A stretch of 64,000 bases of DNA from Pseudomonadota bacterium (GTDB lineage: Bacteria > Bdellovibrionota_C > UBA2361 > OMII01), in contig JAYPVM010000008.1 in the NCBI GenBank assembly GCA_038134595.1, positions 1,461 to 65,460 on the forward strand. Direction: 5' to 3'. The number at the start of each line of letters is the position of its first letter. The stretch's first letter is position 1. This document shows, one piece after another, positions 3,461-7,843 of the stretch. Both the position numbers and the translations under genes were made by a program. Below the pieces are notes generated by a model that saw nothing but the letters and a program-made list of their open reading frames with translations, made no database searches and had not been told where the DNA came from.

Positions 3461-6400
3461 ATGAATCTAGCGTCGATTCAATTAGGAGTGGAAACCGAGC
3501 AAATGAACAAGTTCAGTGACAGAAGGGGTGTCTCTGGGGTAAGCGATTCTGCACAAGGCCCCTCTTCGGAACGAAAGCCGGCAGAACAACAGTCAGGTTC
3601 GATAAAACTCCCGATACCCCAGCAAGACGCGCGCACGCTTCACCCGGACTTCATTACAGGGTTGGTGAGATATTCCCCAGATAGAAGCTCGTCTGCCCCG
3701 CAAGGCTCCCCGATAGTACAGGATGCCTTCCTTAGGGATCTTCATAACGACTTTGAAAGGATGCGGGCTCAAATCGCTGGGACAGTCGAGATGCTTAGCA
3801 AGGTGCCATCGGAGTCTTACAAGAGCCTGATGGGGGGCAATCGTTTCGATCCATCAGACTGTTGGGCTCCTCTTGCCACGCCGCCTAGCGAATCTGGTCG
3901 TGAGCAAAGACCAGACAGCAGGCCTTCTCTTTCACTGAGCATGGGACAGGAGAGATTGTTACAACTTAAGTTAGAGATTAATGAGCGCGCCTTAAAGCGC
4001 AAGAGAGAGAGCCTTGAGAGAGTAGTAAGATTGGGATCAACCTATGGCAAGGACGTTTATGGTAAAATAGCCGACGATTACAGAAGGGAGATCGAGAAAC
4101 TTGAGCGCAAGTGTGAGGAGTTAAAGCAAGCTTTGTCGGGCAACTCGGACCCTGCGGTATCACCTAGTCCGCTCGAGCCGGAGGGCGGAGATCCTTCAGG
4201 CTCCACAGTTTCATCTGATGAAGATTCCTCTAGGAGCATTCCGAGTGATTTAAAAACTTCGAAACACGAACGCCGAGGAGGAGATCAGCGAAATGTTAAA
4301 GATAGAATAGTTCCCTTAATTGACCCGAATGCTCCAGTGGCTGAGGTAAGTGAAAGAGCGAAGGAGTGTGTATCTCGCTTGATGAGAGATCAGAATGAGG
4401 TTCAGATTGCAGGCCCTGAGGATGCAAAGTTGCTCGAACGGGCTTTGCACGTTATCAATCCGAAACTCCTTGCCCTTCTCGCAGACAGTAATTATTCGAT
4501 TCTTGCAGCTCGTCATAATGTTGCTCACGGTATTGCCAATGTGCATGGAAGACATCTCGGAGATTCCGCCGTCATTGACGAAGCCAGTGGAGTGCATTCG
4601 AGCGAAAAGAAAATCTCCTTAGCAACATACCTCCAAAACGGCCAACTGCGCGTGAATATACCTACCCTCATGCATGAAATTGGACATGCTGTATTTCAAC
4701 TTCTTACCGAGAAGGCACAAAAAAACCAATATACTCTCACTTCTCCCGAAAAAAAACTCCTTGAGGATTTCGGGGATGCTTATAAGGCTGAGGGCGAATA
4801 CATGCATCGAGATTATTTTCGAGATACCGAACAGGAATTTCTCGCTGAAACCTTTTCTATGTACTGCATGAAGCCAGATGAATTACGAGCTAAATTTCCG
4901 AAGACCTTTGCTTGTTTTAACAGGCTAGCTCCTCATACGCATCCAACGGATCCACAGCAAAGTTATGGAACATTACTAGACTTTCAACGCCTCTACCATT
5001 TGCAACAGAGCATCGAACCCGTAGCATTAGCACCAGGAGATCCGGTTGACTTTCTAGCGCATCTTAGCGGAGTAGAGAGTCTAAATGCTGAGCGTATCGA
5101 GAAGAGGATAAGTCCCGAATCAACTCTTTACTTCCTCGATGGTGAGCCCCAGGCGATAGATGCACTGATGGAAAGAGCAGGCCACGACCTGACTATGATC
5201 AGGGGCCAACGAGCGCCCTTTAATGAGTTAGAGGGGTTGATTAGGATAACAGGCGATCAACTGAACGATCCTTCCGAGCTCTTTAGAAATCTTGCGGGAA
5301 CAATCGGAGCTGTTTTGTATGTTCCTAAACACTTAAACATTACGACCAAGGAACCTTTTTTCAGCGAATTTAAGACTTTTTGCGAGAGAAATAACGGGAT
5401 GTGTCATCTTGCTATAGCAGGCGGAAGGAAGCTACGAGAGGATTTTTCGGACTTCCTTCAGGATAACAAGTCGGCACTCAATTCAGTGGATTTACGATTG
5501 TCAGCACTGTCCTCAGCGAAGATGGTCGAACTGATATTGCGGAGAGCTCGACAAGATTCTTATGTGTTTACCGATGCTGCAAGCGAGCGGTTGTCAGAGA
5601 TGATAGCCCTGGGCGGCACTTTTCAAGATGGATATCGCATCTGGGATAAGATTCGTAATGCCTATAACCAGACAAGTGGACAAGGCGCTCCTAGCAGTAG
5701 CGAAAGCGGTCCAGAGCAGGTCAATACTATCACTCCAGAGGTCCTTGAGGCCGCAGGCATCGAGCAAGCACAGGATCCCTTAACAAAATTAGAAACCACG
5801 TTCTCTCTGCAGGAGCGAGCTATGCAGGAAGCTAGGGCGCTCATCGCAGACCATAAGGAGGACCCAACTACGAGACGTGAGGCGCCGCTAGCGCTGACGT
5901 TCTCAGGGAATCCAGGAACTGGAAAGACATCATTTGCAAGACTCTTAAGTCAGGTCTTCCAGAAAGAGGGAGTTGTCGATAGCCCTCACATGGAGGAGGT
6001 TTCAGCGAGTAAGCTAATCGAAGGTGGGGCTTCTGGATTGCGAAAAACGATTGAAAAGGCAAAGAATGGGGTTGTTTTCATCGATGAGTTCCATCAGCTA
6101 AATCCCGATCGTAATGCGGGTGGCAGAGCAATAATCGACGCGCTTATCCCAATTTTGACGGATCCAGAGTATGCTAGCACGGTATTCATTTTTGGGGGAT
6201 ATAAATCAGATATAAAGGAGCTGCTGAGTGCTGATCAAGGATTGGCATCACGATTAAGCAATCAGATTGACTTTAGGGATTACACTACTGACGAACTGCA
6301 AAAGATAGCCTTGGAGACTTTCCGTGACCGTGGTTTGAGTGCAAGTGAAGAAGTGATGCGAGAAGTGTCTAATCGTATAACGAGACTACAGAACTCGTCA

Positions 6401-7843: not shown

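Follow-up and report, generated by a model that had tools for sequence, protein, structure and literature searches.

What might a bacterial protein do that carries a lethal-factor-like metalloprotease and a row of AAA+ ATPase modules in a single chain? The question is raised by a gene on the forward strand of a 64,000-nucleotide stretch of DNA (the window; positions 1,461 to 65,460 of contig JAYPVM010000008.1, assembly GCA_038134595.1) from a Pseudomonadota bacterium placed by GTDB in Bdellovibrionota_C (UBA2361; OMII01). A sequence-only reading of the window had described the gene as one uninterrupted open reading frame (ORF) encoding a 1460-residue fusion of a gluzincin with one degenerate and two intact AAA+ modules of the CbbX type, and had regarded the combination as undescribed. 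The ORF was recovered at exactly the same place, single and unbroken over 1460 codons from an ATG start, and the domain calls, their order, and their boundaries all proved correct when compared with Pfam, profile, and structure-model evidence. A full-text literature search found no paper describing an ATLF-AAA fusion, in agreement with the earlier claim. Tentatively, and with somewhat less than even confidence, we read the protein as a self-contained ATP-dependent site-specific endopeptidase, a "cut-and-pull" machine, of a previously undescribed family. Its parts are as follows:

3461..7843, + strand: whole ORF, 1460 residues; Met15 at 3503 is a possible true start
3461..4327, + strand: variable N-terminal region, residues 1-289 (from composition; it does not align to homologues)
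4358..4930, + strand: M34/ATLF zincin domain, residues 300-490 (Pfam PF07737; profile matches to lethal factor and PPEP-1)
5081..5785, + strand: D0, degenerate AAA+ module, residues 541-775 (hhalign, AlphaFold, Foldseek)
5786..6550, + strand: D1, intact AAA+ module of the SpoVK/CbbX/EccA clade, residues 776-1030
6551..7330, + strand: D2, second intact AAA+ module, residues 1031-1290
7331..7687, + strand: acidic helical tail, residues 1291-1409, net charge -13 (composition and model)
7688..7840, + strand: Cys-knuckle domain, residues 1410-1460 (conserved columns)

The ORF is a real gene and no assembly artefact. A 12.6-kb Logan contig (run SRR26337514), which represents an independent assembly, is 100% identical to window positions 2553-15128. 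A 97%-identical contig from another run spans codons 15-909 along with the upstream region, and codons 928-1460 and the downstream genes are contained in a third contig. In addition, residues 290-1460 align collinearly with about 30 distant proteins. An assembly chimera, which the sequence-only reading had named as a possible pitfall, is ruled out by these matches. The true start of the ORF may lie at 3503 because the gene call of the close variant begins at Met15, a TAGGAG sequence is located about 13 nucleotides upstream of that codon, and the ATG at 3461 has no obvious ribosome-binding site.

The family to which the protein belongs was exposed by an exhaustive phmmer search of 1.84 billion cluster representatives with residues 290-790 as the query, which returned 40 proteins at E<=1e-3, 31 of them at E<=1e-10; word-indexed homologue searches had given 3, 0, and 2 matches. 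Nearly all complete members are collinear and 1150-2320 residues long, and the homologue loci that were fetched range from 32 to 70% in GC content. Judged from these sequences, the family is rare yet widespread and conserved, and no one-off.

The protease part is best introduced through its key sites:

4673-4687, + strand: HEIGH motif of the zincin (H405, E406, H409)
4814-4816, + strand: Tyr452 of the zincin
4835-4837, + strand: Glu459 of the zincin, a zinc ligand

The Pfam search that had been proposed earlier detected both kinds of domain, with ATLF at residues 370-488 and two AAA domains. The ATLF match (PF07737) scores 39.6 bits against a gathering cut-off of 27.4, and the same model is matched by 15 of 28 family members at E<=1e-4. 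A profile built from 16 family members matches lethal factor with an E-value of 6e-10 and also aligns, over its positions 15-183, to residues 27-196 of PPEP-1, which is the whole domain (E 3e-9). H405, E406, H409, Y452, and E459 align with the motifs of lethal factor and PPEP-1, with the Tyr placed seven residues before the Glu and the Glu contained in EFxAE. Their counterparts in lethal factor are H686, E687, H690, Y728, and E735, and they are invariant among the catalytically intact family members. In these alignments the domain is shown to be a catalytically complete M34 zincin with all the catalytic residues of lethal factor at lethal-factor spacing, which bears out the earlier call of an HExxH and EFxAExF gluzincin of the lethal factor/M34 type. 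A relocated M41 domain of FtsH was also considered and was rejected, as both Pfam and PDB place the zincin in M34; Peptidase_M41 is absent among the Pfam matches listed. On the other hand, the statement of the sequence-only reading that FtsH and Lon join their AAA+ modules to unrelated protease folds fails for FtsH, since its M41 protease is itself an HExxH zincin.

The catalytic residues are not retained by all members. HExxH is gone in 7 of the 40, the zinc-binding Glu is also gone in six of those seven, and D1 is intact in all seven. By the alignment, the zincin has turned into a pseudo-protease in a minority of lineages, and this joint loss of catalytic residues can serve as a natural experiment in pseudo-protease evolution. 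Lethal factor provides a parallel to such members, as it carries an inactive N-terminal copy of the same fold. The loss is also an argument for considering the protein as a specialized chaperone or segregase, in which the ATLF domain would mainly bind substrates as an N-domain or serve self-processing, and target proteolysis would not be the main output. The characterized members of the ATPase clade are indeed narrow-client chaperones with varied N-terminal recruiting domains (PMC11513918), and the zincin and D0 are predicted to form a defined two-domain unit in just the N-domain position. However, 33 of the 40 members, including the window protein, keep every catalytic residue at the exact spacing, which speaks for selection that acts on catalysis. 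The genes nearby include no conserved partner or client, and a ratio of non-synonymous to synonymous polymorphism (pN/pS) of about 1.4 is unexpected for a housekeeping chaperone. We consider this explanation unlikely.

The two intact ATPase modules are marked by the following motifs:

5906-5929, + strand: Walker A of D1, GNPGTGKT at residue 816
6077-6100, + strand: Walker B of D1, FIDEFHQL (FIDE at residue 873)
6191-6205, + strand: GGY of D1 (FGGYK, residues 911-915)
6410-6424, + strand: GNARD of D1 (residues 984-988)
6716-6739, + strand: Walker A of D2, GGSGTGKT at residue 1086
6833-6847, + strand: pore loop of D2, E-Y-V-G-Q (residues 1125-1129)
6899-6916, + strand: Walker B of D2, LIDE at residue 1147

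Walker A and B are present in both modules and the best matches are EccA1 and CbbX, so that two intact modules of the CbbX/SpoVK family had been called rightly. In the PDB sequence search the E-values were 6e-21 for EccA1 and 5e-18 for CbbX, with 0.12 for p97 and 0.4 for FtsH. The top NCBIfam models were SpoVK, EccA, and CbbX, which scored 193, 158, and 151 bits against equivalog cut-offs of 423, 467, and 459 bits, respectively; because these scores lie far below the cut-offs, the window protein is, on this sequence criterion, not an orthologue of any of the three. AAA_lid_6 was found in 23 of 28 family members. Three signatures of the clade are given in a 2024 study of SpoVK (PMC11513918). 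The GY signature at sensor 1 is present in D1 as FGGYK, with the G and the Y invariant in the family, and D2 (ADY) keeps only the Tyr. At the signature Asn of the clade, which precedes the arginine finger, D1 (DQGLASR) and D2 (DRGLASR) instead have an Asp that is invariant in the family; the alignment register to CbbX at this point relies on the NPGFRSR motif of CbbX. The sensor-2 Arg, or second arginine finger, is found in the GNARD motif of the window D1, the family consensus being GNAGxV and many members having no Arg there. D1 and D2 are thus assigned by their motifs to a divergent branch within the SpoVK-EccA-like clade and not to CbbX, SpoVK, or EccA proper.

Different roles for the two modules emerge from a column-by-column comparison of the motifs that are kept and lost across the family. 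In D1, Walker A and FxDExHQL are invariant or nearly so (the latter is invariant in the alignment members that cover D1), and an aromatic pore loop never occurs in the D1 of any family member. D2 has the aromatic-hydrophobic-Gly pore loop [YF][VIL]G in nearly all members (Y-V-G in the window protein). Because of this pattern, D1 is the indispensable engine and D2 is likely the threading ring. The same distribution is known from p97, whose D1 is devoid of an aromatic pore loop and whose D2 has one. The core model reached a predicted local distance difference test score (pLDDT) of 84 and a predicted template modelling score (pTM) of 0.54. Its tandem AAA region superposes on Rix7, NVL, Cdc48/p97, and Drg1 with TM-scores of about 0.47-0.50 over some 570 columns, and its single modules superpose on CbbX with TM-scores of 0.66-0.70 at 24% identity. 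The D1-D2 pair is therefore shown, in the predicted model, to fold like the two-ring unfoldases Rix7 and Cdc48/p97. The structure prediction and Foldseek search suggested by the sequence-only reading thus returned AAA folds that resemble both CbbX and p97.

D0 had been described as a CbbX-like module without Walker A and B, and this is what was found. It is homologous to D1 (hhalign 96.1%, E 3e-9) and to D2 (96.3%, E 1.7e-9), and the family profile gave weak direct matches to EccA1 and CbbX in this region. Both Walker motifs are lost, with LDGEPQAIDA at the place where Walker A is expected and VLYVPKH at that of Walker B. An AlphaFold model of residues 300-790, which comprise ATLF and D0, reached a pLDDT of 84 and a pTM of 0.82, and its AAA part was matched by Foldseek to CbbX (TM-score 0.54 on the target) and p97. 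This model points to a single unit in which the zincin and D0 have a defined relative orientation.

From these parts the cut-and-pull reading can be assembled into a mechanism. The protein would form a hexamer of three stacked rings, in which the six zincin domains sit on D0 at the N-terminal, entry face of the ring stack. Targets would be chosen by the variable N-terminal region together with the protease groove; the zincin would clip the target, and the D2 ring would then pull the cut chain from its complex or fold. In an alternative order, pulling would come first and expose the cleavage site. D1 would drive or regulate the assembly as a whole. As ATP is needed, the action would be confined to a cytoplasm, either that of the producer or that of an invaded or injected cell.

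How such a machine relates to known systems depends on the part that is compared. Like FtsH, the window protein combines a classical-AAA ATPase and an HExxH zincin in one chain, and the union of ATPase and protease in one polypeptide is common to the covalent AAA+ proteases FtsH and Lon. In contrast to FtsH, its protease belongs to M34/ATLF and is N-terminal instead of C-terminal, the AAA tiers number three where FtsH has one, and a membrane anchor is absent; furthermore, the M34 family is known for site-specific cleavage and not for processive degradation. In FtsH and Lon the protease is C-terminal and forms a chamber at the pore exit, whereas the window zincin precedes all three AAA modules. 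The aromatic pore loop that these proteases use for threading has an equivalent in D2 and no counterpart in D1. With CbbX, SpoVK, and EccA the protein shares the best sequence and fold matches of D1 and D2, AAA_lid_6, the GY of D1, and variable N-terminal recruiting regions, while the GNAR of its D1 has no Arg in many family members; it differs by scores below the equivalogs, Asp for the signature Asn, tandem modules plus a dead module, and the fused peptidase. With lethal factor and PPEP-1 (Zmp1) of MEROPS M34 it shares the fold family, the HExxH, Tyr, and EFxAE Glu at identical spacing, and the size of a whole PPEP, but those proteins are secreted, ATP-independent, and either stand-alone or part of an A-B toxin, whereas the window domain lies inside a cytoplasmic-looking ATPase.

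The predicted D1-D2 arrangement, which superposes on Cdc48/p97, Rix7/NVL, and Drg1, adds a further likeness. The geometry would be closer to that of Rpn11 on the proteasomal ATPase ring, where a metalloprotease is placed at the entry face, or to deubiquitinases at the mouth of an unfoldase ring, than to FtsH and Lon with the protease behind the ring. This would be a functional analogy only; the ATPase clade differs, a covalent zincin takes the place of a JAMM or OTU deubiquitinase, and the stack has an additional dead ring. The novelty lies in the M34 kind of protease, in its N-terminal placement, and in the clade of the ATPase. The SpoVK-EccA-like clade was defined in the 2024 study of SpoVK and reported there as sister to the FtsH AAA domain; for this clade, in contrast to the other groups of classical AAA+ proteins, the authors state that "we found no evidence" of fusions to peptidases or of associations with them (PMC11513918). 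The present family is a peptidase fusion in a clade that was reported to have none, and, if the reading is true, it would overturn the current view that peptidases are never partners of the SpoVK/CbbX/EccA clade (PMC11513918).

Protein quality control and regulation depend centrally on ATP-dependent proteases, and in all those known to us the proteolytic part lies behind the unfoldase ring. In the window protein, a protease of the lethal factor type, normally a sequence-specific endopeptidase, precedes a p97-like double ring. Were the reading to hold, specific cleavage coupled to extraction would represent a new design principle, and the gene would provide a tractable single-gene system for the coupling of cleavage and unfolding. 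In its most far-reaching form, which we regard as possible but doubtful, the family would join FtsH and Lon as a third class of covalent AAA+ protease, one whose topology is inverted. Six site-specific M34 endopeptidase domains would occupy the entry face of a three-tier stack of modules from the SpoVK/EccA clade, which until now has been taken to comprise non-proteolytic chaperones only. The machine would carry out an ATP-coupled "cut and extract" on a specific target protein and would serve as a weapon or immune effector that evolves rapidly, across bacteria and perhaps also in some eukaryotes.

The question of what such a protein is used for was approached through its evolutionary rate. Compared with the 97%-identical variant, the 5' 895 codons carry 66.5 non-synonymous and 13.5 synonymous differences (pN/pS 1.45). 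The N-terminal 275 codons account for 29 non-synonymous and 3 synonymous differences (pN/pS 2.8), and the zincin for 7 and 0, which leaves its ratio undefined. The 3' 534 codons, compared with another variant, show 9 non-synonymous and 2 synonymous differences (pN/pS 1.3). For the housekeeping genes of the window the ratio is 0.01-0.21, with fliK the highest (0.21), measured against a different and more divergent strain (locus L015), so that the pairs are unmatched. The ratio of the target gene is far above 0.2 (p < 1e-14) in a comparison that comprises about 90 substitutions and these unmatched strain pairs. Moreover, the 4.4-kb ORF has no stop or frameshift in three strain variants, and six indels, three in each of two strain alignments, all fall outside it. 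We read this as a reading frame that is kept by selection while its amino acid sequence turns over fast, which fits a conflict or host-interaction protein. Because of the fast turnover between strains, the hypervariable N-terminus, and the location in an island, the evidence suggests that the target is a protein of another organism or of a genetic parasite, and that a conflict or host-interaction role is to be preferred over housekeeping proteolysis. The evidence narrows the mechanism and does not choose among biological settings.

Several points weigh against the cut-and-pull reading and the conflict role attached to it. The pN/pS of the target is not significantly greater than 1, except marginally in the N-terminus (p = 0.046), and the other island genes, including the decaying neighbours, also have ratios of about 1; for both reasons relaxed constraint is an alternative reading of the rates. 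The conserved function of the family cannot strictly need proteolysis, since seven members have lost HExxH yet keep D1. D2 has lost Walker A in five members and Walker B too in four of these five. The core model, with its pTM of 0.54, is too low in score to fix the placement of the protease relative to the D1/D2 pore, and a protease on the N-terminal side is, to our knowledge, the opposite of every characterized AAA+ protease. Finally, Pfam and PADLOC revealed neither a secretion signal nor an immunity gene nor the signature of a defence island for the window gene.

Carried to its end, relaxed constraint would make the gene an intact-looking relic that is drifting toward a pseudogene and is functionless in this genome. 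A ratio that is indistinguishable from neutrality is what would be expected in such a case, as are two neighbouring genes already split by frameshifts and an island whose genes all have ratios of about 1. The gene itself tells otherwise: it is free of stops and frameshifts in all three variants, the six indels spare it, and its catalytic and ATPase motifs are all intact. We regard a relic as highly improbable.

A second setting for the same mechanism is the cytoplasm of another cell. The protein may be a delivered effector or toxin that is exported into a eukaryotic host or a prey cell, be it by secretion of type III, IV, or VI, by contractile injection, or during prey invasion. In that cell the lethal-factor-like domain would cleave a signalling or structural protein of the host, while a host complex would be remodelled by the AAA+ rings. 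Secreted toxins and secreted proteases are the best-known carriers of ATLF/M34 domains, and ALF-metallopeptidases are toxin modules delivered by PVC or by type II secretion (PMC3482391); Zhang et al. (2012) described them in no other role than as domains of toxins that are secreted or PVC-delivered, with delta-proteobacteria among the hosts (PMC3482391). The hypervariable, low-complexity N-terminus, the ratio between strains at or above 1, and the variable island with uncharacterized and also fast-evolving neighbours are consistent with such a role, as is the ankyrin-repeat gene that lies 2 bp upstream of the family member at locus L032. Also, one homologue with 34% identity is encoded in a genome of the Archangiaceae (Myxococcota) and several more are found in similarly high-GC loci; the polymorphic and PVC-delivered toxins carry the same peptidase family as a conflict effector (PMC3482391).

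However, the window protein differs from those toxins in several respects. Its sequence shows neither a signal peptide nor a hydrophobic segment nor any known trafficking domain, its zincin is internal and followed by about 1000 residues of ATPase instead of being C-terminal as in polymorphic toxins, and an immunity gene is absent. No secretion-system genes adjoin any of the homologues examined, a subunit of about 160 kDa that needs a ring of about 1 MDa would be unusual cargo, and in P0035, the closest homologue, an N-terminal extension is nearly absent. Delivery into another cell is accordingly a serious candidate that we nevertheless consider rather unlikely. If the protein is delivered as an effector or serves in immunity, its target would matter to host-microbe or phage biology.

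Alternatively, the gene may act at home in anti-phage defence or abortive infection, with the AAA+ stack sensing or unfolding a phage protein and the zincin cleaving a phage protein or an essential host protein. It evolves fast and stands alone in a variable island, where its neighbour is an orphan HicA-like toxin gene. An ATPase-plus-protease logic occurs among known defence systems, and PADLOC gave weak generic matches to DolB and IetA. These matches reflect generic AAA similarity (DolB 44 bits, IetA 26 bits) and no system-specific model, and other homologues lie among housekeeping genes (relA, mutL, miaA, dnaJ). On viral contigs, AAA-motif patterns returned generic AAA genes only and ATLF patterns returned no relatives, so that no relatives of the ATLF+D0 unit were found there; a fold search of BFVD likewise gave generic AAA matches only. 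There is no link to a defence island, and some members apparently occur in a very large, probably eukaryotic, assembly. A defence function is thus very unlikely in our judgement, and the cut-and-pull reading with a target outside the producer's own housekeeping is retained as the preferred one.

The N-terminal region, which would take part in target choice, has no counterpart in the homologues, whose own N-terminal regions extend from about 30 to about 1160 residues and rarely have any Pfam match. Residues 1-290 consist of Ser to 14% and Pro to 8%, with a highly charged and Pro-free stretch at 156-228. The Ser/Pro richness that had been noted earlier was borne out, and the disorder and coiled coil proposed along with it are judged from composition and not from a predictor. 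A PDLxFGE[TR] motif was observed in about 17 of the 40 members (P0038-P0064), many of them of high GC content, some 35-45 residues before the zincin; the window protein does not have it. The motif might belong to a pro-peptide, or else to a segment for autoinhibition or self-cleavage. In the 2307-residue member P0042, a second HExxH was seen at residue 677 (ALRHEFTHVVF) within the long N-terminal region, where it possibly marks an additional zincin domain.

At the other end of the protein, the acidic tail was modelled as helices with a pLDDT of 85-91 from residue 1335 to the C-terminus and below 50 at residues 1309-1336 (1020-1047 of the model). The acidic helical tail of the sequence-only reading was thereby borne out. 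The protein does not end at the Cys motif, as had been assumed: CPYCGQVNSPSC occupies residues 1417-1428 and is followed by 32 further conserved residues. The Cys positions are given here as one feature:

7709-7744, + strand: Cys1417, Cys1420, and Cys1428 of the Cys-knuckle

The pattern of the Cys-knuckle is FxYxCPxCGxxxSxxC...W.I.xS.KKP, with F, Y, C, C, C, W, S, and P as invariant columns. Comparison of the C-terminal profile with the PDB and Pfam gave nothing significant, and a sub-threshold resemblance to the first zinc knuckle of eL43 is a hint only. An HbYX proteasome-docking motif at the C-terminus was rejected by inspection, as the C-termini vary across the family.

A survey of phyletic distribution and gene neighbourhoods, which had been recommended with the first description, placed the window protein in its rare, widespread family and found no conserved gene neighbours. 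No conserved operon partner was detected in the window and seven homologue loci (L001, L004, L007, L010, L012, L032, and the P0067 contig), and the gene is a stand-alone unit because no neighbour is conserved across these loci. P0035 is flanked by miaA and a hypothetical gene on one side and a Na+/H+ exchanger gene on the other, P0036 adjoins a DnaJ-domain gene and glycosyltransferase genes, P0037 lies on a contig with Planctomycete-type genes, and P0052 is located between an HD-domain gene and hypothetical genes. At L032, the ankyrin-repeat gene (4298-5713, +) ends 2 bp before the family member (5715-10541, +), a single case that suggests co-translation of the two.

Some members may come from outside the bacteria. 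P0069, whose gene is split into two calls, belongs to a very large assembly (GCA_041443025.1) that is probably eukaryotic. The subgroup P0066-P0072 is of unusual composition, and P0067 (JGI sample 3300059473) is flanked by protein-kinase genes; these members are possibly eukaryotic or giant-virus copies of the family. Separately, the closely numbered runs SRR312144xx, presumably of one project (L011, SRR31214405; L003 and L013, SRR31214416, SRR31214402, and SRR31214403), hold variants of the window gene and also the very different second member P0045 (locus GC 32%). Two unrelated organisms of what is apparently the same sample set therefore carry the family.

The first 12 kb of the window form an accessory island in which several proteins have no family match. 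The region had been described as accessory and partly decayed, and two genes near the target are indeed split in the window relative to another strain. The neighbouring features of the island are:

2304-2988, - strand: two overlapping ORFs (149 and 90 residues) of one frameshifted gene, continuous over at least 196 residues in strain variant L003; no Pfam match
7856-8236, - strand: orphan HicA-toxin-like gene, convergent and 13 bp past the stop of the target, with no room for a HicB partner
8620-9651, - strand: ORFs of 81 (9406-9651) and 253 residues (8620-9381), which correspond to a single ORF of 327 residues in strain variant L013; no family match
9994-11520, + strand: Ser/Ala/Gly-rich protein of 508 residues (493 in other strains); no family match

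Between strains the HicA-like gene shows 20.5 non-synonymous and 4.5 synonymous differences, the split gene at 8620-9651 has a pN/pS of about 1.0, and the gene at 9994-11520 is a fast-evolving island gene with a pN/pS of 0.97 at 7% divergence. The window as a whole is chromosomal. Its genes include mgtE, pckA, tkt, htrA, and alr, together with a parC/parE-like pair and the cluster fliK-flgD-flgE. The presence of this flagellar hook cluster (fliK, flgD, and flgE at 35350-39085, +) indicates that the host is, or was, motile.

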